A stretch of 64,000 nt of DNA, taken from NCBI GenBank assembly GCA_948467605.1, contig CAOKET010000003.1, positions 9,230 to 73,229 of the forward strand, written 5' to 3'. The translations under genes were made by a program, and so were the position numbers. Source of the DNA: an uncultured Mycoplasmatota bacterium (GTDB lineage Bacteria > Bacillota_I > Bacilli_A > RF39 > UBA660). Below, in pieces: positions 2,760-55,891 of this stretch. The notes beneath the pieces are model-generated. The model made no database searches. It was not told the DNA's origin and worked only from the letters and a program-made list of their open reading frames with translations. How positions within the stretch are numbered: position 1 is the first letter of the stretch; each line of letters opens with the position of its first letter.

Positions 2760-3995
2760 ATGGAATATATAGTTGACATATTAAGAGAAAATGATGAAGG
2801 ATTAGGAATTGCTAAAATAGATAATATTACAGTATTTGTAAGTGATGCGATTAAGGGTGAAAGAGTAAAAATAGAAGTTATAGATAAGAAAAAAAATTAC
2901 TTACTAGCAAAACAAAAAGAAATATTAAAAAAATCCTCTGATAGAGTAGATACTCCATGTAAGTATTACTCTATATGTGGTGGATGCGATATAATGCATA
3001 TGAGTCATGATAAACAACTTGATTTTAAATTAAATAGAGTTAGACACATATTTAAAAAATTATATGATAAGGAAGTAAACATAGAAAAAATAGAATCGTT
3101 AAATAGTTTTAATTATAGAAATAAAGTAGTACTTAGAGTAGATAATGATATATTAGGATTTTATAAGCATGGAACAAATGAATTATTTGATTGTAATAAG
3201 TGTATTGTATCTAGTGATAATATAAATAAAACAATAGAAATATTACATAATTTTATAAATAATAATAAAAATCATAATATAAAAGAAGTAATGATAAGAC
3301 AAAACAATGACACTATTGGTAAAGTAATGGTATGTATAGATGATATTAACAAATGTTGGCAAGAAAAATTTATAAAAGAATTATCTAGTTATAAATTTAT
3401 TGAAAGCATTTATATAAATGAAAAATTAGTATATGGAAAAAATAATCTTTTAATAAATATGTTTGACTTGACATTTGAAGTGTCACCTAAATCCTTTTTT
3501 CAAATTAATGAATTGATGACTAAATGCTTATATAGTTATGTACTTGATAATATTGACAATGGTAGTAATGCCCTTGATTTATATTGTGGAACGGGTACTA
3601 TTACATCTATAATATCTAAAAAGTGCAATAAAGTAATAGGAATAGAAGTAATTAAAGATGCAATTTATAATGCTAATAAAAATATATTAAGAAATAATAT
3701 AAAAACAGTAGGATTTATGTGTGGTAAAGTAGAAGATTTAATTGATGATATAAATATTAAAAAACTAGATGTAATAGTAATGGATCCTCCTAGAAGTGGT
3801 AGTGATAAAAAAACATTAAATACTATTTGTAATATACTTCCTAAAAAGATAATTTATATTTCTTGTAATCCAGTTACCTTAGTAAGAGATTTAAAACAAT
3901 TAGATGATTATTATGATATTAAAAATATAAGATTGTTTGATATGTTTCCACAAACTCATCACGTTGAATGTGTATGCGTGTTAAATAAAAGGTAA
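2760..3995 (+). CDS. rlmD: 23S rRNA (uracil-C5)-methyltransferase RlmD/RumA with a TRAM domain and an Fe-S Cys cluster
   Basis: N-terminal TRAM-like domain, then CGGCDIMHM Cys cluster, SAM motif LDLYCGTGTI, and catalytic DPPRSG...FPQTHHVECV at the C-terminus. Confidence 0.85.
   Translation: MEYIVDILRENDEGLGIAKIDNITVFVSDAIKGERVKIEVIDKKKNYLLAKQKEILKKSSDRVDTPCKYYSICGGCDIMHMSHDKQLDFKLNRVRHIFKKLYDKEVNIEKIESLNSFNYRNKVVLRVDNDILGFYKHGTNELFDCNKCIVSSDNINKTIEILHNFINNNKNHNIKEVMIRQNNDTIGKVMVCIDDINKCWQEKFIKELSSYKFIESIYINEKLVYGKNNLLINMFDLTFEVSPKSFFQINELMTKCLYSYVLDNIDNGSNALDLYCGTGTITSIISKKCNKVIGIEVIKDAIYNANKNILRNNIKTVGFMCGKVEDLIDDINIKKLDVIVMDPPRSGSDKKTLNTICNILPKKIIYISCNPVTLVRDLKQLDDYYDIKNIRLFDMFPQTHHVECVCVLNKR
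3960..3992 (+). repeat. Direct repeat, copy 1 (actual 3' end of rlmD): tcatcacgttgaatgtgtatgcgtgttaaat
   Basis: It repeats at 5190-5222 with few mismatches. Copy 2 is in frame as H-V-E-Y-V-C-V-L-N-V-stop, i.e. a displaced rlmD C-terminus. Confidence 0.7.
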
Positions 3996-4139
3996 AACCT
4001 TATAGATAAAGGAAAAGCGGGCTATTCAGTTGAGAACAAAAAATGGTAAAAAACGAGTAAATTATTGATATTTTTCCTGATTTTTGAAAAAAATATTGTG
4101 GAGGTTGTCTGTGGAGAATATGTTCCCTAAAACCACTAT

Positions 4140-4170
4140 AACTGGTATGAGTGTATAATTAAAATTATAA
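4140..4170 (+). promoter_or_regulatory. Candidate sigma-A promoter with extended -10 (tgtgtataat) in front of the first ORF6N gene
   Basis: gagTGtgTATAATt sits about 25 nt upstream of the RBS GGAGG and the ATG at 4187. Confidence 0.4.
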
Positions 4171-4186
4171 ATGGAGGTTTTAGGTT

Positions 4187-5062
4187 ATGAATGAATTATT
4201 AGTAAAAGAAAATATAAAAATTGAAGATATGATTTTTGAAATAAGAGGAAAGCAAGTTATTTTCTCATCAGATGTTGCAAAGTTATATAAAACAGAAACA
4301 AGAATTATAAATCAAACGATTAAAAGAAATATTATGAGATTTCCTGAAACATTTTGTTTTCAACTAACTATGGAAGAGGTAATAAACTTGAGATCACAAT
4401 CTGTGACCTCAAGTTTAAGGAATGAAATAGTACATGGTGGAATAAGATATTTACCGTATGTTTTAACTGAACAAGGAATAATGATGTTATCTGGGCTTCT
4501 TAAAAGTGATGTTGCTGCCAAAGTAAATGTTCAAATTATTGACGCTTTTGTTGCTATGAGAAAATTTATTTCAAGTACAATGGTAAATCAAAGTTTTATA
4601 AATAATTTAGTTTATAAGCATGATGAAGAAATCAAGTTACTAAAAGATTCTTTTGATAAATTACAAGAAAAGGAAAAAAACAATGCAATATTCTTTGATG
4701 GACAAATTTATGATGCTTATTCATTACTATTAGATATTTTAAATAGTGCAACAAAAGAAATAATTATTATTGATAATTATGCTGGTAAAGAATTATTAGA
4801 TATTTTAAAAGAAATAAATGTTAATATAATAATTTATTCTGTAAATATGAATGAAACATTAATCAAAAAATATAAAAGCCAATACAATAATGTTGAATTA
4901 GTATTTAATAATAGATTTCATGATAGATTTATTATTATAGACAACAAATATATATATCACTGTGGTAGTAGTTTTAAAGATTTAGGAAAGAAGTGTTTTG
5001 CCATTAATAAAATAGAAAGCAACAAAATTTTAAATGGTGTTTTAGATGAAATTAGAAAGTAG
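4187..5062 (+). CDS. ORF6N (KilA-N-related) DNA-binding domain protein fused to a conserved C-terminal domain of unknown function (paralog 1)
   Basis: The N-terminus reads FEIRGKQV...SDVAKLY...NQTIKRNIMRFPETFCFQLTMEE...LPYVLTEQGIMMLSG, the ORF6N signature as I recall it. The C-terminal half carries IIIIDNYAGKELLD...FHDRFIIID...GSSFKDLGKKCFAIN, shared by all three paralogs. Confidence 0.75.
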   Translation: MNELLVKENIKIEDMIFEIRGKQVIFSSDVAKLYKTETRIINQTIKRNIMRFPETFCFQLTMEEVINLRSQSVTSSLRNEIVHGGIRYLPYVLTEQGIMMLSGLLKSDVAAKVNVQIIDAFVAMRKFISSTMVNQSFINNLVYKHDEEIKLLKDSFDKLQEKEKNNAIFFDGQIYDAYSLLLDILNSATKEIIIIDNYAGKELLDILKEINVNIIIYSVNMNETLIKKYKSQYNNVELVFNNRFHDRFIIIDNKYIYHCGSSFKDLGKKCFAINKIESNKILNGVLDEIRK

Positions 5063-5189
5063 TATATACTATAATTAATAACTACTATATATTCATAATA
5101 AACATTATATTTATATTGTTTGTGTATTACGACATAGTCAGTTGTAAACAAACATATAAAAGTCAACTATTAATAATACACAAACTTAT

Positions 5190-5222
5190 CATGTGGAATA
5201 TGTATGCGTGTTAAATGTGTGA
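5190..5222 (+). repeat. Direct repeat, copy 2: displaced remnant of the rlmD 3' end (candidate att scar)
   Basis: catgtggaatatgtatgcgtgttaaatgtgtga matches 3960-3992. Confidence 0.7.
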
Positions 5223-5278
5223 TAAAACTTTATATGATAGGAACAGAGAAACTGTTGTATAATATAGATTAATATTTA

Positions 5279-5731
5279 ATGGAGGATAATATGGAAGATT
5301 TAAAAATAAGTATTGAAAAAGAAAATAATGATTTTTTTAGAAAATGGATTATAGAAGAATGGAAACACCATAATACAGTTGATTCGATATATCAACTAAA
5401 AATAATAAAACCAGAAGACTTAACTTTTCAAAAAAATGAAGAATATTATAAAATTATATGCAATGATGAAATGGTTGGATTTTTTGGAATAAAAAATTAT
5501 GAAAAAGAACTATATCTATATAGATTTTTTATTGATGAAAAATATCGAAATAAAGGAATTGGAACAATAGTATTAGGAAAGATTATTGATATAGCAAAAG
5601 AACAAAATAAGGATATGACATTAGAAGTAATTGGAGAGAATATTGCAAGGGATTTGTATGAAAGATTAGGATTTAAAACTCATTATAGAAAGATGGTATT
5701 AAAAATCAATGACAATATATATGAAAATTAG
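5279..5731 (+). CDS. GNAT family N-acetyltransferase
   Basis: Motif A reads ...DEKYRNKGIGTIVLGKIIDIAKE..., followed by ...YERLGFK.... Length is 150 aa. Confidence 0.75.
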   Translation: MEDNMEDLKISIEKENNDFFRKWIIEEWKHHNTVDSIYQLKIIKPEDLTFQKNEEYYKIICNDEMVGFFGIKNYEKELYLYRFFIDEKYRNKGIGTIVLGKIIDIAKEQNKDMTLEVIGENIARDLYERLGFKTHYRKMVLKINDNIYEN

Positions 5732-5775
5732 TAAAAATATGTATGATATAGCCAGTTTGATTGTAATATAAAATA

Positions 5776-6294
5776 ATGAATATGAGGAGAAAGTTTATGA
5801 ATATTAGAAGGAAAAAAATAACAGACTGTGAGGTATGGGTTGACATTAATATTAAAAGTTGGAATGATAATTTAAAAGGAATTGTATCTGATAGAGTATT
5901 AAAAATAATTTCAGATAATAGAGATTCTAGGATTGAAAGAGATATTAACAATTTTAAAATAGATGATTGGAATTATGTTTTAGAAGAAAATGATAATGTT
6001 GTTGGGATACTAAAAATAAAACAATCAGACAGAAAAGATTATGAAAATTGTGCTGAAGTGCAAGTTTTATATTTATATACTAATCAAAAAGGAAAGGGAT
6101 ATGGTAAGTGCTTGATTAATAAAGCGTTTGAAGTCTTAAAAGATAAAGGATATAAAAAGGTTGTTATTGGTTGTCTTGAAGGTAATCCTTCTAATGAGTT
6201 CTATAAACATATTGGAGGCAAATTTATAAGGCAAGAACCTTGGGATATTTTTGGCGAGCATTATGTAGAGAATATATATGAATACAATATATAA
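5776..6294 (+). CDS. GNAT family N-acetyltransferase (the start could be the downstream Met at 5797)
   Basis: ...YTNQKGKGYGKCLINKAFEVLKDKGYKKVVIGCLEGNPSNEFYKHIGG... is a typical GNAT motif A/B. Confidence 0.65.
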   Translation: MNMRRKFMNIRRKKITDCEVWVDINIKSWNDNLKGIVSDRVLKIISDNRDSRIERDINNFKIDDWNYVLEENDNVVGILKIKQSDRKDYENCAEVQVLYLYTNQKGKGYGKCLINKAFEVLKDKGYKKVVIGCLEGNPSNEFYKHIGGKFIRQEPWDIFGEHYVENIYEYNI

Positions 6295-6375
6295 TAGTTA
6301 TAATTTATAAAAAGTATTTATAAGAAAAAAACATATGTTAAGATATATATGAGATAAATATATAATAAGAATTTA

Positions 6376-6560
6376 AAACTAATTGAAATAGAATCTCCTA
6401 TTTGATAAAATAAAGAAGTATTAATTAACTTGCCATGTATTGATACTTTTACAATTTAGACGATAATTTATATTTTTAGGCAAGGAAAATATATCTATTC
6501 GGGATATACCTATATATTAAGGGTATATCTTTTTTTATTTAGTGGAGGGATGATAATAAT
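6376..6560 (+). repeat. ~185 bp leader repeat, copy A (upstream of ORF6N paralog 2), containing a hairpin plus T-run
   Basis: By eye about 90-95% identical to 7461-7633. It contains GATATACC-N11-GGTATATC followed by TTTTTTT, about 20 nt before the RBS. Confidence 0.75.
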
Positions 6561-7454
6561 ATGAATGAAATTGTTGTAAATGAAAAAGAAAATATTAGTA
6601 ATAAGATTTATGAAATAAGGGGAATTCATGTAATATTAGATAGTGATTTAGCAATTCTTTATAAGTGCAATAACGGAACAAAAGATATAAATAAGGCGGT
6701 AAAAAGAAATATTAATAGATTTCCTGATGATTTTTATTTTGAATTGACTAAAGAAGAAGTAAAAATGTTAACTTCAAGGTTCCATTTTGGAACCATGAAC
6801 AAATCAAATAATTTACGTGGATATAATTTAAAATATTTACCCCATGCATTTACAGAGCAAGGAGTTGCTATGCTTGCATCAGTATTACATACAAGTATAG
6901 CAGAAGAAGTAAGTATAAATATAATGAGAACATTTGTAGCAATGAGAAAATATATATCAAATGATTTATATAAAAACAATAATATACTAATAAATCATGA
7001 GAATAGATTATTAAAATTAGAGGAAACATTTGATAAGATGCAAGTAAATAAAAAAATAAGTACAATATTTTACAATGGTCAAATATATGATGCCTATTCG
7101 ATATTAATGAGCATATTAAATAGTGCAAAAGAGGAAATTATTATAATAGATAATTATGCGGGAAAAGAACTTTTAGATGTATTAAAGAATATTGATAAAA
7201 AGATATTAATAATATCAAAAAATATAGATGATATATTAATAAAAAAGTATAAAGAACAATATAGCAATGTAGAATTTAAAAAACTTGATATTTTTCATGA
7301 TAGGTTTATAATAATAGATAGAAAAGTGTTATATAATTTTGGTACATCTTTAAAAGATTTAGGTAAAAAGTGTTTTGCGATAAATGAAATGGAGTCTTGT
7401 GAAATATTAGATGTTTTATTGAAAAAAATATTAGATAGAGATGGCCGCTTTTAA
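6561..7454 (+). CDS. ORF6N domain fusion protein (paralog 2)
   Basis: The N-terminus reads ...YEIRGIHVILDSDLAILYK...NKAVKRNINRFPDDFYFELTKEE...LPHAFTEQGVAMLAS.... The 3' ~455 bp (6941-7394) is nearly identical to 8017-8468. Confidence 0.75.
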   Translation: MNEIVVNEKENISNKIYEIRGIHVILDSDLAILYKCNNGTKDINKAVKRNINRFPDDFYFELTKEEVKMLTSRFHFGTMNKSNNLRGYNLKYLPHAFTEQGVAMLASVLHTSIAEEVSINIMRTFVAMRKYISNDLYKNNNILINHENRLLKLEETFDKMQVNKKISTIFYNGQIYDAYSILMSILNSAKEEIIIIDNYAGKELLDVLKNIDKKILIISKNIDDILIKKYKEQYSNVEFKKLDIFHDRFIIIDRKVLYNFGTSLKDLGKKCFAINEMESCEILDVLLKKILDRDGRF

Positions 7455-7460
7455 CAAAAA

Positions 7461-7633
7461 AAACTAATTGAAATAGAATCTCTTTTTTGATAAAATAAAG
7501 AAGTATTAATTAACTTGCCATGTGTTGATACTTTTACAATTTAGACGATAATTTATATTTTTAGGCAGGAAAAATATATCTATTCGGGGTATACCTATAT
7601 ATTAAAGGTATATCTTTTTTTATTTAAGGAAGG
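7461..7633 (+). repeat. Leader repeat, copy B (upstream of ORF6N paralog 3)
   Basis: Near-identical to 6376-6560, with the same hairpin (GGTATACC...GGTATATC) and T-run. Confidence 0.75.
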
Positions 7634-7642
7634 ATGATGAAA

Positions 7643-8515
7643 ATGAATGCAATTATTATAGATGAAAAAGAAAATATTAGTAGTAGAATTTATCAAATAA
7701 GAGGAGTACAAGTGATGTTATCTTCTGATATTGCTAAGTTATACGAAGTTGAAACAAAAGTATTAAATCAAACAATAAAAAGAAATATTAATAGATTTCC
7801 TGAAACATTTTGTTTTCAGTTAACAAAAGAAGAGATAATCAATCTATCTTTAAGGTCACAATTTGTGACCTTAAACAGTAAAGATAATATGAAAGGCCAA
7901 CATTATAAATATTTACCTTATGTTTTAACTGAACAGGGTATAATGATGTTATCTGGATTATTAAAAAGTGAAATTGCAGCTAAAGTTAATATTCAAATTA
8001 TTGAAGCATTTGTAACAATGAGAAAATATATATCAAATGATTTATATAAAAATAATAATATACTAATAAATCATGAGAATAGATTATTAAAACTAGAGGA
8101 AACATTTGATAAGATGCAAGTAAATAAAAAAATAAGTACAATATTCTATAATGGTCAAATATATGATGCATATTCAATATTAATAAGTATCTTAAATAAT
8201 GCAAAAAAAGAAATAATTATAATAGACAACTATGCGGGAAAAGAACTTTTAGATGTATTAAAGAATATTGATAAAAAGATATTAATAATATCAAAAAATA
8301 TAGATGATATATTAATAAAAAAGTATAAAGAACAATATAGCAATGTAGAATTTAAAAAACTTGATATTTTTCATGATAGGTTTATAATAATAGATAGAAA
8401 AGTGTTATATAATTTTGGTACATCTTTAAAAGATTTAGGTAAAAAGTGTTTTGCAATAAATGAAATGGAATGTGATAGTATATTAATCAGCATATTAGAA
8501 AAATTAGATGATTAG
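7643..8515 (+). CDS. ORF6N domain fusion protein (paralog 3; the ORF track starts at 7634, but the ATG at 7643 has proper RBS spacing)
   Basis: The N-terminal module resembles paralog 1 (...RFPETFCFQLTKEE...LPYVLTEQGIMMLSGLLKS...). The C-terminal half is nearly identical to paralog 2 at the DNA level, so the gene is mosaic. Confidence 0.75.
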   Translation: MNAIIIDEKENISSRIYQIRGVQVMLSSDIAKLYEVETKVLNQTIKRNINRFPETFCFQLTKEEIINLSLRSQFVTLNSKDNMKGQHYKYLPYVLTEQGIMMLSGLLKSEIAAKVNIQIIEAFVTMRKYISNDLYKNNNILINHENRLLKLEETFDKMQVNKKISTIFYNGQIYDAYSILISILNNAKKEIIIIDNYAGKELLDVLKNIDKKILIISKNIDDILIKKYKEQYSNVEFKKLDIFHDRFIIIDRKVLYNFGTSLKDLGKKCFAINEMECDSILISILEKLDD

Positions 8516-8545
8516 GTTATAAAAAACTTGTAAGGTGGATTTGTT

Positions 8546-9223
8546 ATGAAAGATATTAAAAAGGTAACAGCAATAATTTTGGCTTCAGGAAATAGTACAA
8601 GATTTGGGAAAAATAGGAATAAAAACTTTGAAATAATAGATGGGAAAAGTGTATTAGTATATAGTTTAAATGAATTTGATAAGAATAAATATATAGATAA
8701 TATAGTAATTGCATGTAAACAATCAGAAATTAAAGAAGTTAAAAACATAATAGGAAATGAGAAACTCTCCAAGCACATAAATATAGTTGTAGGAGGTAAT
8801 TCCAGAAAAGAATCGGTATATAATTGCTTAAAAAATACAAACTCTGATATTGTAGTTATACATGATGGTGCAAGGCCTTTAATTAAACAAGAATATATTA
8901 ATAAATGTGTTGAAAATATTAGTGAAATTAAAGGGGTTACTATTGGTGTAAAATCAAAAGATACAATAAAAATAACCGATGAAAATAACATTGTTATTGG
9001 AACAACTAATAGAAGTAATACATGGATAATTCAAACACCACAGGCATTTGATAGAAAAATTTTGTTACAAGCACACGAGAAATATAAAGGTGATGTAACG
9101 GATGACTGTATGTTGCTTGAAGAATATGGTCATAAAGTTAAAATACTTGAAGGAGATTATACTAACGTAAAAATTACTACATATGAGGATTTAGAAATTA
9201 TAAGAGAATATTTAAAAAAATAG
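8546..9223 (+). CDS. ispD: 2-C-methyl-D-erythritol 4-phosphate cytidylyltransferase
   Basis: The N-terminus VTAIILASGNSTRFG is the IspD signature. Length 225 aa. Confidence 0.85.
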   Translation: MKDIKKVTAIILASGNSTRFGKNRNKNFEIIDGKSVLVYSLNEFDKNKYIDNIVIACKQSEIKEVKNIIGNEKLSKHINIVVGGNSRKESVYNCLKNTNSDIVVIHDGARPLIKQEYINKCVENISEIKGVTIGVKSKDTIKITDENNIVIGTTNRSNTWIIQTPQAFDRKILLQAHEKYKGDVTDDCMLLEEYGHKVKILEGDYTNVKITTYEDLEIIREYLKK

Positions 9224-9337
9224 TAGTAATTGATAGTATACATATTTGTTTGTAAATAATTTGATAAAGAAAATTAAAGGATTTTATAGATGAATAATAC
9301 TAAAACAAATATATTTTTATTTTAGAAAGGAATAATT

Positions 9338-10138
9338 ATGAGTAAATTAAAATTGTGTATATTTTCAGATATACATTATATAGATAAAAAACCAAATTGG
9401 ACTGTTAACCAAAAACTTACCGAATATTCTACTATACTTTTAGATAAGATTATAGATAAAGTTAATAATGAGATAAAACCAGATGTTTGTATATGCTTAG
9501 GAGATATGATACAGGCCTCTAAAAGTAAAGAAGATGATATAAATAATATAAAATATATATGGAATAAACTAAAAACAATCAATGTCCCATTTTTTTCATT
9601 AATAGGTAATCATGAGTTAAAGATGATGGAAAATAGTAAAGAGGTTTTAGAATTAATGGGATATGAAAGAAGTTGTTTTTCAACTGATATAGATAAATAT
9701 CATTTGATTTTTTTAGGAACAGAAATAAATGATAAAGATAAGTTGTATAGAACACAGTATTTATCTTCTGATGATTTAAAATGGATTAAAGAGGATTTAG
9801 GTTTAAATAAAGATAAGAAAATATTTATATTTTCACATTTTGGGATTGCAGAAGATGATATGAAAGGAAATTTTTGGTGTGAAAAGGATCCAGAAACAGC
9901 ATTGTTTAGAAATAGAGATGAGTTAAAAGGGTTATTATTAAAACAAAAAAATATAGTTGCAGTTTTTAGTGGACATCAACATTGGACAAAAAAACTTCAA
10001 GAAAATGGAATTTCTTATTATATTGTTGGTTCATTAATTGAAAATATAAATTCAGATGGAATTCCTGATGGAGTTTATTTTGAAGTTGAAGTAGATGATT
10101 GTAACTTAACAGTAAAAGAAAAACATTTGAGTATATAA
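9338..10138 (+). CDS. Calcineurin-like metallophosphoesterase
   Basis: Motifs CIFSDIHY, GDMIQ, GNHE and SGHQH are present. Confidence 0.7.
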   Translation: MSKLKLCIFSDIHYIDKKPNWTVNQKLTEYSTILLDKIIDKVNNEIKPDVCICLGDMIQASKSKEDDINNIKYIWNKLKTINVPFFSLIGNHELKMMENSKEVLELMGYERSCFSTDIDKYHLIFLGTEINDKDKLYRTQYLSSDDLKWIKEDLGLNKDKKIFIFSHFGIAEDDMKGNFWCEKDPETALFRNRDELKGLLLKQKNIVAVFSGHQHWTKKLQENGISYYIVGSLIENINSDGIPDGVYFEVEVDDCNLTVKEKHLSI

Positions 10139-10166
10139 TATATTTATTAAATAGTGTATAATATTT

Positions 10167-10625
10167 ATGAAAGAAAGTGAAATAAAAATGGAACTAATAG
10201 TAGGCGGTATAATAGAAAAAGATGGTAAGGTATTACTTGTACAAGAATCTAAACCAAAATGTTATGGAAAGTGGAATATTCCAGCAGGTCATTTAGAACC
10301 TAATGAAACTATAATGGAAGGTGCCATAAGAGAAATAAAGGAAGAAACGGGATGTGATGTTTGTATAACAGGGGTCTTAAGTATTGAGAATCTTTTATAT
10401 GATAGTAATACACTTATTTGTATAATATTTAGCACTAAATTATTAAGTGAATATCAACCATATAAGAGTGATGAAATACTAGATACTAAATGGTTTGAGA
10501 TAGATGATATTATTAATAATATGGATGATAAATTAAGAGATGTAGATATTATTAAACATCCAATAATAAATTATAAAAATGGTAACATATGTAATTTAGA
10601 TATTATTAATGATGTGCGTAAATAG
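10167..10625 (+). CDS. NUDIX hydrolase
   Basis: Nudix box GHLEPNETIMEGAIREIKEETG fits GX5EX7REUXEEXGU. Confidence 0.8.
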   Translation: MKESEIKMELIVGGIIEKDGKVLLVQESKPKCYGKWNIPAGHLEPNETIMEGAIREIKEETGCDVCITGVLSIENLLYDSNTLICIIFSTKLLSEYQPYKSDEILDTKWFEIDDIINNMDDKLRDVDIIKHPIINYKNGNICNLDIINDVRK

Positions 10626-10661
10626 AGGTATTATATACTTAAAGTAAAGAGGGATTGTGTA

Positions 10662-12521
10662 ATGAAGAAAGTATGTAAATATATTGTTTTATTAATTAGT
10701 ATTTATTTTGTTTTTATTACAAAATCTTTTGCAAAAGTTATTGATAGTGAATATGATTATTTAAATATTACTGAAATAAGTGAACTTTCAAATATAAAGG
10801 CAGAACATATATTACTTTATAATTTAAATGATAATAAGATACTATATAAAAAAGGTATAGATGATAAAATATCTATGGCCAGTTTAACTAAAATAATGAC
10901 TGCGATAGTTGCAATAGAAAATATTGATAATTTAGATGATAAAGTGACACTTAACTCTTTAGCATTTTCTAATATATTAGGATATGCAAAAGCGGGGTTT
11001 AAAATAGGGGATGTTGTTACTTATAGAGATCTTTTATATAGTATTATGCTTCCTAGTGGAGTAGAAGCAGCCCAGGGATTAGCAATAAGTATTTCTAGTG
11101 ATATAGATAGTTTTGTAGATTTAATGAATGAAAAAGCAAAAAAGTTAGGAATGAATAATACTCGTTATAGCAATCCAGTAGGAAGAGATGACGTTAATAA
11201 TTACTCTACACTAAGTGATTTAGCAAAACTTTTACTTTATGCACTAGATAATGAAGTATTTTATGAAATATATACAACAAGAAAGTATATTACTACAAAT
11301 AATTTAGAATTTTCAAGTACTTTAGAGTTTCCTGCTAAAAGATATGGAATAAATGTTGATGATATTATTGGTTCTAAATCTGGATACACTCATGATGCTG
11401 GTCTTTGTTTATCAAGTATTGCTGAATTTAATGGTGTTAAATATTTACTTATTATTACTAATTCATTATATGATAATGGATATCCTAATCATGTTATAGA
11501 TAGTTTAAATATTTATAATTACTATAAAGAAAACTATGGTTATCATAATATACTTAACAAAAATCAAGAATTATTAAATATAGATGTAGAAGATGGATTC
11601 ATAGATAAATATAATGTAATAAGTGATAAGGATGTATCACTATATTTAAAAAATGATATGGTTGATAAAATAGAATACAAATATAATGGATTAGATACAT
11701 TAAATTATAAAGTAAAAGATAATGAAAAATTAGGAAGTCTAGACGTAATTTATGAAGATAAAATTCTTTATACATATGATATTTATCTTCATGATAAGAT
11801 TAAATATAAACATACTAAATTAGTTATTTTATCTATTTTATTAATAATTATTATTACATTAATAATTATCTTAATTAAAAGAAGGAAGAAAAAAACTGTA
11901 ATTAATCTTAATAAAGAAGACATGAGTTTAGAAGAAATAACCGTTAAAGAATTTAAAAAATATTTTTATAGGGATTATAATAAACTTTTCCCAGGAATAG
12001 AAAAAAATACATATCATGAATTAAAAAGAAAGGAAAAAATTGGTATAACTCGCTTTTTCAGTATAAAAGTAAGTAATAATTATATTGGCTTTATGATAAT
12101 TAATTCATTAAATGAAAATCTTATAGTACTTGATTATTTTGCAATATTGCCTAGATATCAATCTAATGGATATGGTACTAAAAGTATAGAGTTATTAAGC
12201 GAAAAATTTAGTGGTTGTACTATATGTATAGAAGTAGAAAAAGATGGATTTGGTAAAGATGAGCAAGAAAATAATACAAGGAAAAGAAGAATTAACTTTT
12301 ATGAAAATTGTGGTTTTAAATGTATGGATTTCTATATTTATTACTATCACGTTTATTATTCTATTTATTGTTTAAATTTAAATATGGATAGTAATAGTGT
12401 TTTAGAAAACATGAGAAATATATATGTATCTATGTGGGGAGAAGAAGAAATATCAAAGAACTTAGAAATTTTATATGAAAGTGATAATAAAGAGGCAGAA
12501 GATGAAGGAAAAGATAAGTAA
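10662..12521 (+). CDS. D-alanyl-D-alanine carboxypeptidase (S11, PBP5-like) fused through a TM helix to a C-terminal GNAT-like domain
   Basis: Signal peptide, then the SxxK motif (SMASLTKIM), an S11 core, a TM segment (LVILSILLIIIITLIIILI followed by KRRKKK), then ...LDYFAILPRYQSNGYGTKSIELL..., a GNAT-like motif A. Confidence 0.65.
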   Translation: MKKVCKYIVLLISIYFVFITKSFAKVIDSEYDYLNITEISELSNIKAEHILLYNLNDNKILYKKGIDDKISMASLTKIMTAIVAIENIDNLDDKVTLNSLAFSNILGYAKAGFKIGDVVTYRDLLYSIMLPSGVEAAQGLAISISSDIDSFVDLMNEKAKKLGMNNTRYSNPVGRDDVNNYSTLSDLAKLLLYALDNEVFYEIYTTRKYITTNNLEFSSTLEFPAKRYGINVDDIIGSKSGYTHDAGLCLSSIAEFNGVKYLLIITNSLYDNGYPNHVIDSLNIYNYYKENYGYHNILNKNQELLNIDVEDGFIDKYNVISDKDVSLYLKNDMVDKIEYKYNGLDTLNYKVKDNEKLGSLDVIYEDKILYTYDIYLHDKIKYKHTKLVILSILLIIIITLIIILIKRRKKKTVINLNKEDMSLEEITVKEFKKYFYRDYNKLFPGIEKNTYHELKRKEKIGITRFFSIKVSNNYIGFMIINSLNENLIVLDYFAILPRYQSNGYGTKSIELLSEKFSGCTICIEVEKDGFGKDEQENNTRKRRINFYENCGFKCMDFYIYYYHVYYSIYCLNLNMDSNSVLENMRNIYVSMWGEEEISKNLEILYESDNKEAEDEGKDK

Positions 12522-12732
12522 TATTTTTAATATAATGTGTGATATAGAATATGGTTTTAAAGACAGTATGGGCAAAAATATTATTGATGATCCTAATGTG
12601 TTTGATGATAACAGATAACGATAATTGTCCTCTTAAATATTTAGAAAAAGTGTAAAGAGATAATATTAATATATTAATAATCATATTTTTATGTTATTAT
12701 ATATGTTAGTTTTTTAAGAAAAGTGGTGATAT

Positions 12733-13758
12733 ATGAAAACAGATGATTTTGATTATGAACTTCCTTTAGAACTAATCGCACAAACACCTCTTAGTAAAAG
12801 AGATGATTCTAAGTTATTAGTATTAAATAAAAGTAATGGAGATATTACGCATAAGAAATTTAGTGATATATGTGATTATTTAACTAGTAATGATGTATTA
12901 GTATTAAATGATACTAAAGTTATACCTGCAAGATTAATAGGGATTAAGGAAAGTACAGGTGCAGTTATTGAAATACTTATTTTAAAAGAAATGGAAAATA
13001 ATCATTTTGAATGTTTAGCAAAACCTGCTAAAAGAATACATGTTGGTGATATAGTATCTTTTGGAGATGGCATATTAAAGGCAAAATGTATATCTATTGG
13101 CGAAGAAGGTATAAGAATTTTTGAGTTTTTATATTCGGGTATATTAGTAGAAATATTAGATCAACTTGGTGAGATGCCACTACCACCTTATATCCATGAA
13201 AAACTTGAAAATAAGGATAGGTATCAAACTGTATATGCGGCTAACTTAGGTTCTGCAGCAGCACCTACCGCAGGACTTCATTTTACTAAAGAACTAATAG
13301 AAAAAATAAAGAATAAGGGTGTAGAAATATTATATGTAACTTTACATGTTGGTCTTGGAACATTTAGGCCAGTTAGTGTTGATGATGTTACTAAACATAA
13401 AATGCATACAGAAGAATATTATATGTCATCTGATGTTGCATCTAAATTGAATGCTGCTAAAGTTAAGGGTAAAAGAATAGTGAGTGTTGGTACAACAACA
13501 GTAAGAGTTTTAGAAACTATATATTCTAAATACGGATGCTTTAAGCCATGTCACGATGAAACAAATATATTTATATATCCTGGTTATTGCTTTAAAGCAG
13601 TTAATGCCCTTATTACAAATTTCCATTTGCCAAAATCAACTTTATTAATGTTAGTAAGTGCATTTAGTAGTAAAGAAATAATAATAAATGCATATAAGGA
13701 AGCAATAAAAAATAATTACAGATTCTTCTCATTTGGAGATAGTATGTTTATTTGTTAA
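12733..13758 (+). CDS. queA: S-adenosylmethionine:tRNA ribosyltransferase-isomerase
   Basis: The N-terminus [20 protein letters not shown] is the canonical QueA start. Length 341 aa. Confidence 0.9.
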
Positions 13759-13827
13759 AAAATTTAAAAAAAATGTTGTGTAAATATAAAAAAAAGTATA
13801 TAATTGTCGATAAGGAGTGGGTGATGA

Positions 13828-14613
13828 TTGATGTCTGGATTTAATAGAATAACAAAAGAAAGATATTTAGAAATAAAAGAAGAGGCAAAAGAATTAGCAT
13901 TAGAGAATCCTGAAAGAGAGGAAAAAGCAGCATTAGTTGAAGAACGTCGTAAGGATTTTTCATCTGAAGATGAAAGAATAGTATTTATTGGTAACCTATA
14001 TTTTAGGGATGATGATGAATTTTTAAAAGATTATAATATGTATAATAGAAATATTAAATTAATGGCAGATAATTATGATATTGATACATATATAGTTAGA
14101 TGTAAGGTATTAGAAATGGCTATGTTTAAAGAAGTAAAAAATATTTCTAATGAAATTATTCAAATGCCTATTATTAGTGAAAAAGAATCAGAAGAAGATG
14201 AAGTTTCTAGTGAAGAAGAAGTAAAAGATGATGGAGTACCATCTGATTTTGATGAAGTTATGGATTCATTCTTAGATGATTCATCAACAAAAGTTACTGA
14301 AATAAACGAAAGAAATGTAGAAATAGAAACTCTACAAAAATCTTTAATTGAATCTATAAGAGTTGCAAAGGTAAGTGTAAGTAGAAAAAATAAAGAACTT
14401 GCTCGCGAACGTAAAGAACTTGATAAAGAAAAAGAAGAGTTTGAAGCATATAAACGTGAAGAGATGGAAAACTTATCAAATGAAAGAGTACATCTAGACG
14501 AAGAAGAAGAAAGATTACTTGCTTTGAAAGATAAGATTATGGAAACAATTAAGAGTTTTGAAGAGGCTAAAGCAAATTTAGCAAGTATGTTTAATAATAC
14601 TAATAATGAATAA
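13828..14613 (+). CDS. Acidic, E/K-rich coiled-coil hypothetical protein
   Basis: The composition is low-complexity (EEDEVSSEEEVKDD..., KELARERKELDKEKEEFEAYKREEMENL). An RBS GGAGTGGGTG sits upstream. It lies between queA and tgt. Confidence 0.5.
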   Translation: MMSGFNRITKERYLEIKEEAKELALENPEREEKAALVEERRKDFSSEDERIVFIGNLYFRDDDEFLKDYNMYNRNIKLMADNYDIDTYIVRCKVLEMAMFKEVKNISNEIIQMPIISEKESEEDEVSSEEEVKDDGVPSDFDEVMDSFLDDSSTKVTEINERNVEIETLQKSLIESIRVAKVSVSRKNKELARERKELDKEKEEFEAYKREEMENLSNERVHLDEEEERLLALKDKIMETIKSFEEAKANLASMFNNTNNE

Positions 14614-15769
<1,156 letters not shown>

Positions 15770-15771
<2 letters not shown>

Positions 15772-15791
15772 TAATAATTACTATTTTTTTT
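15770..15791 (+). terminator. Rho-independent terminator after tgt
   Basis: Hairpin AGTAATAATTACT followed by a T8 run. Confidence 0.55.
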
Positions 15792-15833
15792 CATATAGTT
15801 TATTAGAAATTTAGAAAAGAGGGTACGATATAA

Positions 15834-16331
15834 ATGAATAAGCAAAGTTTATGGTTTATTACGTTGTTCAGTTTAATTTTAGTACTTAGTGTATATTATA
15901 TAACTATGCCAAGTGAAATTTTGGTAAGTAATAATGGAGATTTTACTAATACTAATAAATTACAAGCACAAGCAAAAGTAGAAGAAAGTGACATTTTAGT
16001 AGCACTTAGAGTAGCAAAAGAGGAACAAGTTATGTCACAAAGAGAGGACTTAGAATCAGTATTAACTAGTGTAGAAGCAACAGTTGATGAAAAAAATAAT
16101 GCATATGAACAACTAAAAGCACTTACATTAAATCAAGGTACTGAAGAAAAATTAGAGTCAAAAATATCTGAGAAATTTGGCAAAAATTGCTATGTAAAAA
16201 TAGATAACAATCAAATTAGAGTTGTAGTTGCTAGCGAAGAGCATTCTAAAGAACTTGCTAATGAAATAATGAGAAGTATCCAAGAAGAATTTACTGATAA
16301 AATGTATATTTCAGTAAAATTCCAAAGTTAG
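15834..16331 (+). CDS. Hypothetical membrane-anchored protein with an N-terminal TM
   Basis: A hydrophobic N-terminus is followed by a charged C-terminal domain. A good terminator follows at 16330-16349. Confidence 0.5.
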   Translation: MNKQSLWFITLFSLILVLSVYYITMPSEILVSNNGDFTNTNKLQAQAKVEESDILVALRVAKEEQVMSQREDLESVLTSVEATVDEKNNAYEQLKALTLNQGTEEKLESKISEKFGKNCYVKIDNNQIRVVVASEEHSKELANEIMRSIQEEFTDKMYISVKFQS

Positions 16332-16402
16332 AGCAATAGCTCTTTTTTAGTTGACTATTTTAAAAAAAAGTAATATAATATAAATCCAAATTGGGGTGGA
16401 TT

Positions 16403-17515
16403 ATGAAAAATATACAAAAAAAATTAGAAGAAGAAAGATTAAAAGAAAGAATAAAAAATAAAATTGTAGAATATACAATAGAAGCAATGCACAAAACAGC
16501 ACTAGGTGAGTATTTTACTGATGATATGGTTAAGATGAGAATATGTGCTAATATTGAATATATAGACTTTAGAAAAGTTTTAAATTGTGAATCACCAATT
16601 ATAAAGGATGGAATATTAAGCATAGATAAGTCTATATTAAATATGGATTCTCAATATGTAAAAGAAATACTGACATCTTTTGGTATTTACTCTGTAATTA
16701 GTGATTGTAAAAAGTTTAATGTTACTAATGATATGTTAGCAACTTACTTCTCATCACTAGCAGTAAATGGGGATAATTATAGATATATAGATGAATTAAA
16801 ATGCAATAGTTTTTTAAGACATAATTTGACATATAGTAATCAAATATCTATTTTCCATGAGTTAATAGGTGAAGAAGCAATGGCCGTTCTATGTTCTAAA
16901 ATTGATAAAAAACATTCATTCTACGATAATTTATATATATTAATTGATTATATGAAAATTCCTAACTCACTTGATAAAAAAAGTTTAAAGAGAATAGAAA
17001 AGTTAATGAATAGTATGTATAATGCAACTAATAATACTTTAGGAACAAGAAGAATATACGATTTAGTTAAAAACACATATTTTGGTAAATTCAAAATAAT
17101 AATAGACAAATTTTCAACTAAATATTCATTTGTAAAATTTTTTAAATTTTTTGATATGTTTAAAAAGAATAAATATAGTATAAGATATATAGAAAAAGAA
17201 TATGATATTAGTTTAGATAATATTAGACTATCATCTGAAGAAAAAATGGGATTATCAAAAATTTTAGACATACTATGTAATGCTGACCTTAGTATTAATA
17301 GTTATTCTGATATAGATTCAAGATGTAAAGAATTTTTAGAATTACAAGGTAAAAAGATAGTAAGTTCAAGAGAAGAAATTGTTAAAATAGAAGATTTAAT
17401 TGATATGTTACTTGTCACAAAATTTGTATCACCACTTATACAAAAATATGGCCTAGATGATAAAGATTCTAAAAGCATGCAAAAGATATTCCCATATATT
17501 TTAAAGAAAAAATAA
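16403..17515 (+). CDS. Hypothetical protein
   Basis: A long ORF with an RBS GGGGTGG. I recognise no motifs. The ORF track starts at 16391 on a TTG. Confidence 0.45.
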   Translation: MKNIQKKLEEERLKERIKNKIVEYTIEAMHKTALGEYFTDDMVKMRICANIEYIDFRKVLNCESPIIKDGILSIDKSILNMDSQYVKEILTSFGIYSVISDCKKFNVTNDMLATYFSSLAVNGDNYRYIDELKCNSFLRHNLTYSNQISIFHELIGEEAMAVLCSKIDKKHSFYDNLYILIDYMKIPNSLDKKSLKRIEKLMNSMYNATNNTLGTRRIYDLVKNTYFGKFKIIIDKFSTKYSFVKFFKFFDMFKKNKYSIRYIEKEYDISLDNIRLSSEEKMGLSKILDILCNADLSINSYSDIDSRCKEFLELQGKKIVSSREEIVKIEDLIDMLLVTKFVSPLIQKYGLDDKDSKSMQKIFPYILKKK

Positions 17516-17581
17516 AAGTTAATAGTCATCCTTGATTATTAACTTTTTTTTACACACTTATAATATAGTGGAGGTGATATT

Positions 17582-17995
17582 ATGAATTTTAAATGCATTT
17601 GTTCAACACTATTTATAACTCTTACCCTTACCTTAATCATATCTTTAATCCTTATGTTACTTGGAATTGATACTATACCATTAATTTCTCCAAATATAAT
17701 AGGTTTAATATTATTTGAAATAGGCTTAATTAATTTAGTAATATCGTTTGTAGCATTATTATATAGAAGTTGTGGTTGTAAATGTTATATAAAATGTTTT
17801 TCTAATAAATTATTTCTCTTATTTTTGTTTTCTTTATTCCTAGTAATATTTTCTATTATTGGCTTTATTATCTTTTTTAATACTACTATTAATATTTTAA
17901 TATTTTCTATAGGTATATTTTTAGTTTTAGGAATATTACTTACAGAAATAAGTATATTATTCCCACTATTAGGCAGAAATAATATTTTAGGATAA
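17582..17995 (+). CDS. Small polytopic membrane protein
   Basis: RBS GGAGGTG. Four or more hydrophobic helices. An accessory-like gene. Confidence 0.45.
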   Translation: MNFKCICSTLFITLTLTLIISLILMLLGIDTIPLISPNIIGLILFEIGLINLVISFVALLYRSCGCKCYIKCFSNKLFLLFLFSLFLVIFSIIGFIIFFNTTINILIFSIGIFLVLGILLTEISILFPLLGRNNILG

Positions 17996-18124
17996 CCATA
18001 ATTATAAGATATAATAATGTAACTTTTAAAATGGTAAAAATAATGTTTAAATTTAGTATATTAATATTAACTAAATTTATTGACAAATATTTTGTTTTGG
18101 AGGTATACTAAATTAGTATAAAAC

Positions 18125-18350
18125 ATTGATTGAGAGAAGTAATAATAATACTTACTTAAAGCGAGTTAGATATGGTGAAAGCTAACAGTAAAAGGTTATT
18201 ATGAATAACACTCATGAGTGCTTAAAGAAATAATAGTAGACTAAGCCGGTAAATCCGTTATCTTTATAGAGAGACTATATTTTTATAGTAAATTGGGTGG
18301 TACCGCGAAGACAACATTCGTCCCTTTGTAAGGATAATGTTGTTTTTTTA
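18125..18350 (+). ncRNA. T-box riboswitch leader of the gatCAB-aspS operon (probable Asn AAC specifier)
   Basis: Stem I AGAGA at 18133. The T-box sequence AATTGGGTGGTACCGCG is at 18291-18307. The terminator ACAACATT...AATGTTGT plus T7 is at 18312-18350. A candidate specifier is the AAC-A in gaataacactc. Confidence 0.8.
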
Positions 18351-18369
18351 TCTAAGAAAGGGTGATAAA

Positions 18370-18684
18370 ATGGCAAAATTTACACGTGATATGGTAATAG
18401 ATTATGCAGATAAACTATTAATTGGACTAACAGATGAAGAAGTACAGATGGTATTAGATGAGTTTGAGGTAATTGATAAAAATATTGATTTGATAAATGA
18501 AATACCTAATATAAGTGATGTTACTCCTATGACTCATTGTTTAGATAACTTTGAGTTTGAGTTAAGGGAAGATGTAGTAGAAGAGTCAACTGATATTGAT
18601 GATTTATTGCAAAATTGCGACTCTACTTTAGATAGAGAAGTAAAAGTACCAAAGGTGGTGGAAGATAATGGAATACATGAATAA
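18370..18684 (+). CDS. gatC: Asp-tRNA(Asn)/Glu-tRNA(Gln) amidotransferase subunit C
   Basis: MAKFTRDMVIDYADKLLIGLTDEEVQ...LDNFEFELREDVV is GatC-like. An RBS AAAGGGTGA precedes it. The ORF-track start at 18337 is upstream of the RBS. Confidence 0.8.
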   Translation: MAKFTRDMVIDYADKLLIGLTDEEVQMVLDEFEVIDKNIDLINEIPNISDVTPMTHCLDNFEFELREDVVEESTDIDDLLQNCDSTLDREVKVPKVVEDNGIHE

Positions 18685-48355: not shown

Positions 48356-49036
48356 ATGATTAGTACAAGCAGTTATAATAATTGGAAAAGTGACAGATAT
48401 ATAACTTATTCTATATCTGGTGATTGTGGAAAAAAAGCAGGATATATTGGAAGAAACTTTAAACAATTAGCACCTAAATTATCATTTTGGCAAGTATGGC
48501 ATGATAATATTGGTGTTATTGAAGAAGAAGAAAATAATAGATATTATATAGAACAGTATTATGAACAAGTATTATCTAAACTTGATCCAGAAGATATTTA
48601 TAGAAAGTTAGATGGTTCTATACTTTTATGTTATGAAGATAACACAGAATTTTGCCATAGACATATAGTTGCAGGATGGTTAGAAATTTTATTAAATATA
48701 GAAGTTCCAGAAAAAATAGCATACGGCTATAATGTAGAAACAGTTGAAAGACCAGATTATATTAAAGAATATTTAGAAAGTGCAATGAGAAAAAATCGTA
48801 ATATGAGGGGATTTAACTCATTAAGAGCATTATATCTATTTGAAAAAGGAGAAAAACTAGAAGAAGAGGCAGCAAGACTAAAGGAATCAAATAATGTAGA
48901 TACTTTTACTGATATAGATACAGGTGAAATAATAGTAACAGCAAGAGAATATATGCAAGAAGCATGCTATTTAAGATGTCGTGCTGATGATGCAGAAGAG
49001 GAATATAATAAAAGACGAGTTAAAGTAAAAGAATAA
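48356..49036 (+). CDS. DUF488-like protein with a C-terminal extension
   Basis: ...LLCYEDNTEFCHRHIVAGWLE... matches the conserved DUF488 core. Confidence 0.5.
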   Translation: MISTSSYNNWKSDRYITYSISGDCGKKAGYIGRNFKQLAPKLSFWQVWHDNIGVIEEEENNRYYIEQYYEQVLSKLDPEDIYRKLDGSILLCYEDNTEFCHRHIVAGWLEILLNIEVPEKIAYGYNVETVERPDYIKEYLESAMRKNRNMRGFNSLRALYLFEKGEKLEEEAARLKESNNVDTFTDIDTGEIIVTAREYMQEACYLRCRADDAEEEYNKRRVKVKE

Positions 49037-55869: not shown

Positions 55870-55891
55870 ATAAAATCTACAAGTTTTTTTA
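55861..55891. terminator. Bidirectional terminator between pepF and the convergent minus-strand gene
   Basis: CTTGTA...TACAAG followed by T7. Confidence 0.5.

Follow-up and report, generated by a model that had tools for sequence, protein, structure and literature searches.

Why should the end of a housekeeping gene occur twice, 1.23 kb apart? This question is raised by a stretch of 64,000 nucleotides from an uncultured Mycoplasmatota bacterium (GenBank assembly GCA_948467605.1, contig CAOKET010000003.1, positions 9,230 to 73,229), hereafter called the window, in which the 3' end of the 23S rRNA methyltransferase gene rlmD recurs downstream of a single ORF6N-domain gene. The answer proposed in this paper, to which a probability of roughly 0.7 is assigned, is that positions 3969-5198 are a recombinase-less integrative gene cassette, inserted site-specifically at the H-V-E codons of rlmD. 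The comparisons described below demonstrate insertion at the H-V-E core, replacement of the rlmD tail, conservation of the cassette arms, and formation of arrays with the newest cassette next to rlmD. As read from the alignments, the arms define a family of mini-cassettes that had not been described before and whose members, in uncultured gut Bacilli, are stacked into arrays.

The duplicated rlmD end and its core

The genes of the region are ordered PGA_cap, rlmD, ORF6N, GNAT, GNAT, ORF6N, ORF6N and ispD. The 1,230-bp cassette consists of a replacement tail, a left arm, one cargo gene and a right arm. The features of rlmD and the cassette, in window coordinates, are as follows.

2760-3995, forward strand: rlmD (rumA, rum), 23S rRNA U1939 methyltransferase, 411 aa, Pfam domains TRAM and tRNA_U5-meth_tr
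3956-3973, forward strand: attL core TCATCACGTTGAATGTGT, counterpart of the 18-bp Phi-m46.1 attB core in rum
3960-3968, forward strand: inferred crossover CACGTTGAA, codons H-V-E, with the 9-nt overlap CATGTGGAA derived from the locus pair L029/L025 (see below)
3996-4160, forward strand: left arm (L-end); an nhmmer profile of 7 L-ends matches 3960-4147, E 4e-52
3998-4012: stop-proximal hairpin of the left arm
4022-4030: CTATTCAGT box of the left arm
4065-4097: A/T-rich palindrome of the left arm
4100-4136: conserved M motif of the left arm, GGAGGTTGTCTGTGGAGAATATGTTCC..ACCAC
4152-4159: extended -10 element TGTATAAT at the end of the left arm, facing the cargo
4187-5062, forward strand: cargo gene, 291 aa, with an N-terminal ORF6N domain (Pfam E 2e-28) and a C-terminal domain of phospholipase D (PLD) fold
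5094-5189, forward strand: right arm (R-end); the nhmmer R-end profile, in which the window copy is one of five R-ends, matches 5094-5203, E 6e-26
5190-5246, forward strand: attR, with core CATGTGGAA at 5190-5198, the displaced earlier tail A ..YVCVLNV-stop to 5222, and a remnant of the stop-proximal hairpin

A repeat search of the window places the two copies at 3949-4004 and 5179-5234, 56 nt without gaps at 82% identity; in a gapped alignment the repeat stretches to 3949-4017 and 5179-5246, about 68 nt with two small indels. The central 21-mer GAATGTGTATGCGTGTTAAAT occurs twice in the window at up to 3 mismatches and is absent from each of 100 dinucleotide-preserving shuffles. The duplication, which had been pointed out in a first-pass annotation of the window, is thus borne out. 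Copy 1 is the genuine 3' end of rlmD. Copy 2 translates in frame as HVEYVCVLNV-stop, exactly as that annotation had read it, and in the window's list of open reading frames (ORFs) it ends no frame of 40 aa or more; the possibility that it is the end of a different gene is thereby removed. Between the copies lie only the ORF6N-domain gene and the extended -10 element.

The position of the repeat coincides with a classical site of integration. The 18-bp attB core of the streptococcal element Phi-m46.1 has been mapped experimentally in four species as GCATCACGTGGAGTGTGT, ACATCATGTGGAGTGTGT, GCATCATGTTGAGGTGGT and ACATCATGTTGAAGTTGT (PMC4288039 Table 3). Window positions 3956-3973 and 5186-5203 both align with these published cores, and TCATCACGTTGAATGTGT aligns base for base with GCATCACGTGGAGTGTGT and ACATCATGTTGAAGTTGT. 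Streptococcal integrative and conjugative elements (ICEs) as well as integrative and mobilizable elements (IMEs) with a single serine integrase target the 3' end of rum (PMC4701971, PMC5704250), Erysipelothrix prophages adjoin rlmD (PMC12785378), and phage-ICE tandems build up at rum by accretion (PMC13651849). The earlier statement that the rumA/rlmD 3' end is a hotspot in Firmicutes agrees with the literature (PMC4288039, PMC4701971, PMC13651849).

In the deposited Phi-m46.1 record, rum ends in HVECVALLVKA-stop, and displaced tails are found at the right end of the element, before pnp. Two such tails, HVECVSLLEKRS-stop and HHVECVVLLIKE-stop, lie 116 nt apart between the phage attR and pnp in FM864213 (locus L031 2904 and 3020; record positions about 56903 and 57019) and are read as a small scar left at this core by a previous event.

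The two ends of the window segment have the same arrangement. The last 9 codons of rlmD (3969-3995, ..CVCVLNKR-stop, termed tail A) are derived from the element, and attR gives a partial match to the L-end profile, restricted to the tail and hairpin (5190-5235, E 2e-4). On sequence grounds the duplicated rlmD end is a true attL/attR pair, and the proposal of an att-like integration that supplies a replacement gene end is upheld in this form.

An origin without mobility can be dismissed almost entirely, whether as a local duplication of the rlmD end (by slippage or by an unequal crossover), as a chimeric assembly across the ORF6N paralogues, or as a chance similarity between AT-rich sequences. 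The G+C content of the window, 24.6%, favors chance matches, and an assembler could be misled by the three ORF6N paralogues; each of three further contigs of this strain breaks within the first paralogue, ORF6N-1. However, no chance match of this kind is expected, and the attL side is reproduced in three independent assemblies. The right-arm profile match, although the window copy belongs to the profile, is equaled at other loci, including loci outside the profile, and the same architecture is seen in more than 9 unrelated loci.

Arms, cargos and arrays

The most direct view of an insertion is offered by L025 and L029, two loci of one species whose flanks are 98% identical, with an occupied and an empty site respectively. 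In the empty L029, the rlmD tail HVETICVMERK-stop is directly followed by a 429-aa gene. In the occupied L025, rlmD ends in HVECVCVLNLK-stop, and an L-end, a YgjV-like gene, a histidine phosphatase gene and an R-end follow; beyond the R-end come CATGTAGAA, the native tail HVETICVMERK-stop and the same 429-aa gene. The blastn breakpoints (empty 5996-7203 equals occupied 9996-11203; empty 7195-13230 equals occupied 12586-18607) delimit an insert of 1,382 bp with a 9-nt overlap, CATGTGGAA, encoding H-V-E. The consensus of these crossover codons is CAYGTNGAR. Crossover at the M motif was considered and rejected: the L025 insert includes the left arm and the motif, both of which are absent from L029, and therefore the crossover is placed at the rlmD core. 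The core was also examined as a dif-like Xer site, since 18 of 28 positions of the B. subtilis dif match by eye, but this candidate was discarded as the register puts the mapped crossover in an arm and not in the center. On the upstream side, the same pair of loci shows a second indel, a 3.5-kb block between gerA and rlmD (L029 2465-5995) that is absent from L025 and encodes a NUDIX protein, a sigma-70 region 4 protein, a 230-aa protein, a histidine phosphatase and a kinase-like protein.

A comparable insertion is found in a distant lineage. The RlmD of L020 is only 35% identical to that of the window, yet tail A together with the L-end matches at E 1e-50; after this L-end come a two-gene cargo, a diverged R-end, and the native tail of that lineage, AVLQLKRN-stop, abutting the next gene. 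Homologous recombination cannot span rlmD genes of 35% identity, and a site-specific event at the core is therefore required.

Comparison with relatives was made through rlmD. No close GTDB representative was available, as the RlmD search of representative contigs gave only 3 loci at about 40% identity. Protein search gave RlmD homologues of 85, 74, 73, 69 and 56% identity, and the named ones, at 45-49%, belong to 'Bacilli bacterium' metagenome-assembled genomes. On the contigs of these relatives the upstream synteny ABC-OGG-PGA_cap-rlmD is kept, and the downstream content is wholly different. In the closest relative, L007, AbiEi/AbiEii come first after rlmD, then a pseudogene of RhuM, a fragment of an ORF6N gene, one GNAT gene and an ORF6N remnant, ahead of ispD, with one displaced rlmD end after the AbiE pair (13049) and another at about 14046. 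About 6-7 kb upstream of its rlmD, L007 has a gene for an IS605-family OrfB/TnpB (2956-4110), which is absent from the matching place in the window. RhuM follows rlmD in L010, and in L014 a 9-kb block (two-component system, deacetylase, amidase and ABC transporter) is followed by an ORF6N gene.

Despite unrelated genes downstream, alignment of the sequence after the rlmD stop codon across four lineages exposes the M motif, GGAGGTTGTnTGnGGA..A..TGTT.C....ACCAC. It occurs once in the window against 0 expected occurrences, and is present in every related rlmD locus with an L-end (13 of 17 loci). A metagenome scan with the motif gave five loci, of which L018 and L021 displayed a junction unit of about 300 nt. 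Its order is a right arm of about 100 nt, the core with a replacement tail, a short hairpin, and a left arm of about 190 nt. The conserved right-arm blocks are ATAATAAACATT, TATTATGACATAGTCAGTTATA, CAAACATATAAA and CAACTATTCATAAT in the junction unit, and ATAATAAACATT, TATTAyGACATAGTCAGTTrTA, CAAACATATAAA and CAACTATTmATAAT in an alignment of 11 copies from 8 loci. Left arms end in a TGnTAtAaT element, and cargo-specific sequence starts right after it. The L-end profile matches the window, L014, L018, L020, L021 (three times), L025 and L033; the R-end profile matches the window, L014, L018, L020, L021 (twice), L025 and L033 (three times). Because of these profile and arm matches, the GC-richer stretch that had been taken as the left edge is seen to be the best-conserved block of the left arm; it is real, at 4097-4126, and lies about 130 nt inside the left boundary. 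On the same evidence the 1.23-kb segment is bounded by a complete pair of arms.

Several further properties of the arms can be listed. The M motif, which is also present in L007 (11349-11389), L010 (11311-11350), L019, L020, L025 and L033, is the sole block common to type-A arms and to a second type, B. Apart from a 6-nt insertion it looks like the codons of rlmD immediately upstream of the core (..RLFDMFPQT.., AGATTGTTTGATATGTTTCCACAAAC), like a fossil second rlmD end. A search of Rfam with 3500-9000 gave only a sub-threshold miRNA match, at the M motif. One reading frame of the right arm is open in several copies; a small peptide or an integrase 3' end was rejected as its identity, since there is no consistent start, substitutions are mostly non-synonymous, and conservation by eye is that of DNA blocks. 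In IMG/VR, no nucleotide match was found to the M motif, either arm, or tails A and B, and in PLSDB and INPHARED none was found to a full junction unit by blastn.

Tail A of the window recurs in L014, L018, L020 and L021, with 35-69% identity between the rlmD bodies. Of the 120 nearest RlmD clusters, 13 have tail A, 6 have tail B, 14 have another HVEC-type tail, and 87 are native-like. Two loci, L023 (8319-8390, CVCVLNLQ-stop) and L028 (11195-11244, CVCVLNRK-stop), have an rlmD with a tail-A-like end that is not followed by a left arm; this may be due to deletion of the arm, or else the cassette family acquired tail A from a lineage in which it is native. In L018 (9-521), a different rlmD-like gene, truncated after ..LKELY, is fused to right arm, core and left arm, which may reflect a deletion from rlmD to the first cassette or a misassembly (contig coverage 1.7).

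In at least 9 further metagenomic loci, these arms enclose cargo of unrelated kinds. Cargos include ORF6N-PLD, the 9-kb two-component and ABC transporter block, an S-adenosylmethionine (SAM) methyltransferase with RhuM, EEP with RhuM, a kinase-like protein with HAD, YgjV with a histidine phosphatase, a 372-aa protein, CN_hydrolase, and a nucleoside deoxyribosyltransferase; type-B arms enclose AbiEi/AbiEii, RhuM or KilA-N. Most cassettes measure 1.2-1.4 kb and the largest 9 kb. Relatives had been named as a possible refutation if they carried the same two copies around unrelated content in an empty site; such content is indeed seen, but at occupied sites, and so it supports mobility. Arrays of up to about five cassettes occur in the family. 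L021 contains three cassettes set apart by junction units (methyltransferase + RhuM; EEP + RhuM'; the start of an L014-type block). L033 holds at least 4 cassettes within 6 kb, with displaced tails of native type, type B and a third type, and L007 has 2 cassettes plus remnants.

These arrays bear on whether the cassette is only the remnant of something larger. Under that explanation, a full-size ICE, IME or prophage lost its integrase and transfer genes and left a scar, not a mobile unit, as in a classical cis-mobilizable element (CIME). Decay is how, according to textbook accounts, elements without an integrase and accretion arrays arise in Firmicutes (PMC5704250 section 7), phage-ICE tandems do occur at rum (PMC13651849), and the arrays contain decayed material, namely RhuM and ORF6N pseudogenes and truncated arms. 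Against this, at least 10 large elements would have had to shrink independently to one or two genes, each with its two arms still intact and directly next to the cargo. The exact difference of one 1,382-bp cassette between the 98%-identical flanks of L025 and L029 also speaks against decay, as do the recurrence of an approximately 1.2-kb cargo-plus-arms unit in four further samples and the finding of no fragment of an integrase, relaxase or phage structural gene in any array seen. Decay is therefore considered unlikely. Of the two options left by the first-pass annotation, a decayed element or a minimal cassette, the evidence favors the latter, because the same arms bracket unrelated 1-2-gene cargos in many genomes and the empty/occupied polymorphism is clean. 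It looks as if the cassette itself, and not a decayed large element, is the propagating unit.

Downstream of the cassette, the remaining genes of the island can be arranged in older layers. Together with the upstream neighbor of rlmD, they are as follows.

1590-2756: PGA_cap, upstream of rlmD (an OGG gene is also upstream)
5279-5731, forward strand: GNAT acetyltransferase 1 (Pfam), absent from L007
5776-6294, forward strand: GNAT acetyltransferase 2 (Pfam), older island resident
6369-8515, forward strand: region of two tandem ORF6N-PLD paralogues (ORF6N-2, 6561-7454; ORF6N-3, 7634-8515), the ancestral rlmD neighbor
8546-9223, forward strand: ispD (Pfam IspD), conserved right boundary of the variable island, the same in L007

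GNAT 1 is followed by an R-end-like fragment at 5738-5775, a weak local alignment, and would represent an earlier cassette, the M motif having been lost from its left arm. The GNAT 2 orthologue in L007 lies directly after a remnant of a native-type rlmD tail. The duplicated upstream regions of the ORF6N pair, 6375-6548 and 7460-7633, each keep a fragment of the native rlmD tail (tail C), and in L014 (12420-12640) R-end, core and tail C stand ahead of an orthologous ORF6N gene; from this the ancestral state is reconstructed as rlmD (tail C)-ORF6N-ispD. It had been expected that an empty site would show rlmD followed at once by ispD; this expectation is not supported, as the site instead has rlmD with its native tail, an ORF6N gene and ispD. 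The two GNAT and two further ORF6N genes do lie outside the repeat pair, as had been noted, but they are related to it as older, partly decayed layers of the same accretion. In the order of these layers, newer cassettes lie nearer to rlmD and older ones are pushed towards ispD, where they decay. In L007, a fragment about 85% identical by eye to ORF6N-1 of the window is distal to the two type-B cassettes, which fits the order with the newest next to rlmD.

ORF6N-2 and ORF6N-3 with their upstream regions form a tandem duplication with a period of 1,076-1,085 nt. The upstream regions are 94% identical and the C-terminal stretches 96-100%, and the N-terminal halves only about 69-78%, a pattern that suggests recent gene conversion. 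In the distant lineages L033 (12746-13421) and L014 (12420-13447), too, an ORF6N-PLD gene comes after a native rlmD tail, and the hairpin region upstream of it is similar; rlmD and ORF6N may have been neighbors for a long time, or the ORF6N gene may itself be a cassette of great age whose left arm is of another kind.

The proposed movement of the cassette, and its cargo

The cassette entered the CAYGTNGAR core at the rlmD 3' end by site-specific recombination and supplied a replacement C-terminal tail, owing to which rlmD stays intact. The previous rlmD tail was pushed downstream, giving the direct repeat. For the movement itself a mechanism can be proposed. The recombinase would act in trans, from a gene at another place in the chromosome or from a helper (a phage or an ICE), and the cassettes may spread as small circles or by riding with the helper (accretion-mobilization). 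In addition, the left arm would give the cargo a putative promoter.

In agreement with the reported lack of an integrase, no Resolvase, Recombinase or Phage_integrase domain was found by Pfam in the island genes, in 10 searched ORFs of the window that had no assignment, or in any cassette. The positive control, ORF57 of Phi-m46.1, was recovered with a clear score as a large serine recombinase (Resolvase, Recombinase and Zn_ribbon), and no core-like site was present at the 3' ends of the Phi-m46.1 recombinase genes. The ORF6N-PLD protein as the recombinase is not supported, as the cassettes of L020 and L025 occur in lineages without such a gene near the array. By analogy, a rum-specific large serine recombinase may be taken as the leading candidate, because all characterized rum-site elements use one. 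It is a default guess and a weak one, since the arms are too long and the attP-like junction does not exceed shuffles in dyad symmetry. Arms of such length are found more typically in the attP sites of tyrosine integrases.

Traces that may represent an excised form were found. A protein 96% identical to the cargo is encoded on four contigs of about 1.2 kb from four different sequencing runs (L038-L041), in which the right arm reads through the core (CACACAGAA...) and the tail into its own left arm. In L038 (1,235 nt) and L039 (1,232 nt), an exact terminal redundancy of 28 nt equals a circular permutation of 1,207 or 1,204 bp. Such contigs fit an excised circle or a head-to-tail tandem.

A number of observations weigh against the proposed reading. 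The permuted contigs may be no more than unitigs bounded by repeats. For the window cassette there is no empty-site allele, as all 3 other contigs of the same strain carry it. Mobilization in trans is proposed from the absence of a recombinase in 64 kb of this genome and in flanks of at most 10 kb in the relatives. The arms are much longer than the attP of large serine recombinases. Dyad symmetry at eight real or reconstructed attP-like junctions and the empty attB reaches 13-15 of 26 against shuffle maxima of mean 13.1 (sd 1.1), a result that speaks neither for nor against a serine recombinase. As for the promoter role of the left arm, the first-pass annotation had stated that the bracketed segment carries only a promoter and one ORF6N-fusion gene; the gene and the extended -10 element are present, but a promoter and terminator scan of 3900-5400 was not above shuffles and gave no intrinsic terminator. 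Between the window and L038 the gene is 96.9% identical and the arms 63-85%. Finally, the three left arms of L021 share private variants whatever the cargo.

The last two observations, arms more diverged than cargo and private variants within an array, imply that homologous recombination or gene conversion also shapes these loci. If carried further, they would fit a RecA-dependent shuffling in which the junction units of about 300 bp serve as portable homology and no site-specific recombinase is currently at work; exchange, duplication and loss of cassettes would then come from crossovers between junction units, or between rlmD and ispD following DNA uptake. In S. suis, the rum locus has been shown to be replaced in a RecA-dependent way (PMC13651849), which likewise counts for shuffling, and the duplication of ORF6N-2/-3 in the window represents local unequal recombination. 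However, shuffling cannot explain first insertions where rlmD is 35-49% identical and the flanks are unalignable, nor boundaries exactly on the 9-nt H-V-E core with the native tail kept after the right arm. It also does not explain the conservation of non-coding arms of about 100 and 190 nt over such distances. As a full account of the family, shuffling is thus regarded as quite improbable.

The cargo of the window cassette matches the PADLOC profile PDLC04869 of the defense candidate PDC-S05 at E 2e-90 over residues 7-289 of 291, and all three ORF6N proteins of the window give full-length matches to PDC-S05 (E 2e-90 to 4e-85). PDC-S05 is matched by RhuM as well, and the KilA-N cargo of L019 matches PDC-S22 (PADLOC). 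The C-terminal domain contains the invariant residues H245-D-R247..D252..G260-x-S262, an HKD-like motif in which K is replaced by R (HxR..D..GxS, compared with the PLD reference motif HxK(x)4D(x)6GSxN). An AlphaFold2 model has a mean predicted local distance difference test score (pLDDT) of 68.7 overall and of about 83-91 over most of the C-terminal domain. Its Foldseek matches are MITD1, TrmBL2, NucT, Zucchini and PLD3, and the non-catalytic PLD-like proteins (TrmB, MITD1) match equally well; a sequence search of PDB with the protein gave nothing significant. The cargo is thus a candidate anti-phage or nuclease effector. The family as a whole is not purely defensive, because other cassettes carry metabolic or resistance-type genes.

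Elsewhere in the window, a poorly characterized cluster (55889-56815 on the reverse strand, 56977-58407, 58417-59583 and 48356-49036) may be an accessory or defense region. It includes a weak match to Tox-PLDMTX (papain-like toxin), two adjacent large ORFs without a Pfam match and a DUF488-N3a protein.

Significance and relation to known systems

In streptococci, the rum/rlmD site is an entry point for resistance-carrying phages and ICEs. In uncultured gut Bacilli, the same few codons serve a different traffic, that of very small recombinase-free cassettes accumulating in arrays. If these cassettes are moved in trans, they would offer genome engineering an interesting model, a natural and compact form of cargo for a site-specific recombinase; their order of acquisition could be read directly, the newest being next to rlmD; and they would be an easily mined source of candidate defense genes, with PDC-S05, PDC-S22 and AbiE among the cargo. 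Additionally, the arm profiles provide a handle for finding the recombinase by co-occurrence across metagenome-assembled genomes.

Compared with known rum-site elements (Phi-m46.1, ICESsu-type ICEs, IME_SpnAP200_rumA, Erysipelothrix phiEr670 and phage-ICE tandems), the family uses the same att site and core position, replaces the rlmD tail, displaces the old tail downstream, and stacks several units. It differs in size and equipment, as those elements measure 10-130 kb and carry their own large serine recombinase (PMC4701971), whereas the cassettes measure 1.2-9 kb, no recombinase was found in them, and they possess long conserved non-coding arms.

CIMEs, which together with accretion-mobilization have been described for ICESt1/ICESt3 and streptococcal IMEs, are defined as attL/attR-flanked elements without integration or transfer genes (PMC5704250). 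The present segment is likewise flanked, lacks such genes and is of a kind arranged in tandem at the 3' end of a conserved gene. CIMEs, however, are by definition formed through decay of ICEs or IMEs and usually occur singly, with a length of several kb, whereas here many tiny cassettes with standardized arms occur in distant lineages. This standardization suggests that, unlike CIMEs, the cassette itself propagates. No parental ICE or IME with these arms was found in IMG/VR, INPHARED or PLSDB, and the recurrence of tight 1-2-gene units argues against repeated ICE/IME decay.

The staphylococcal cassette chromosome (SCC), pseudo-SCC and the arginine catabolic mobile element (ACME) at rlmH (orfX) also occupy the 3' end of a 23S rRNA methyltransferase gene, with direct repeats delimiting the units. 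In composite SCC islands, recombinase-less units rely on the Ccr serine recombinases of a neighbor (PMC7029136). The likeness is one of analogy only: the target there is rlmH and not rlmD, the repeats are other ones (GAAGCRTATCATAAATGA is unrelated), and the host clade is different. Moreover, the present units are much smaller, have long conserved arms, and have no ccr-like gene found nearby.

Successive integrations at the same site also push older elements inwards in the tycheposon islands of Prochlorococcus, which, like the arrays described here, contain partial copies of the target and degenerate remnants; partial tRNAs and remnants are left there (bioRxiv 10.1101/2020.12.28.424599). Tycheposons differ in having their own tyrosine recombinase and in targeting tRNA genes.

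The last comparison is with integron cassettes and clusters of attC sites lacking integron integrases (CALINs), which share co-oriented cassettes of one or two genes, a conserved recombination unit, the newest cassette at the primary site, and no recombinase in the array. The family differs by lacking the IntI/attI/Pc platform, by a putative promoter in each cassette, and by a primary site inside a housekeeping gene. An attC-like mechanism was rejected, since folding of the window arm as single-stranded DNA is no better than shuffles (z = 0.0 for one strand of right arm plus core and -0.12 for the other); for the L021 junction z is only about -2.4 to -2.5, owing to a short inverted repeat that surrounds the core. 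Integrons are not known in Bacillota. A bolder reading, possible but rather doubtful at present, would make the rlmD 3' end the primary site of an integron-like gene capture, with recombination units of about 300 bp, circles, a recombinase in trans and ordered arrays of defense and niche genes. If true, this would be the first such cassette-array system in Bacillota, mechanistically independent of IntI and attC. What is new here, compared with all of these systems, is a recombinase-less, arm-standardized and array-building family of mini-cassettes at the classical rum site, similar to CIMEs and pseudo-SCC elements and with an integron-like flavor.

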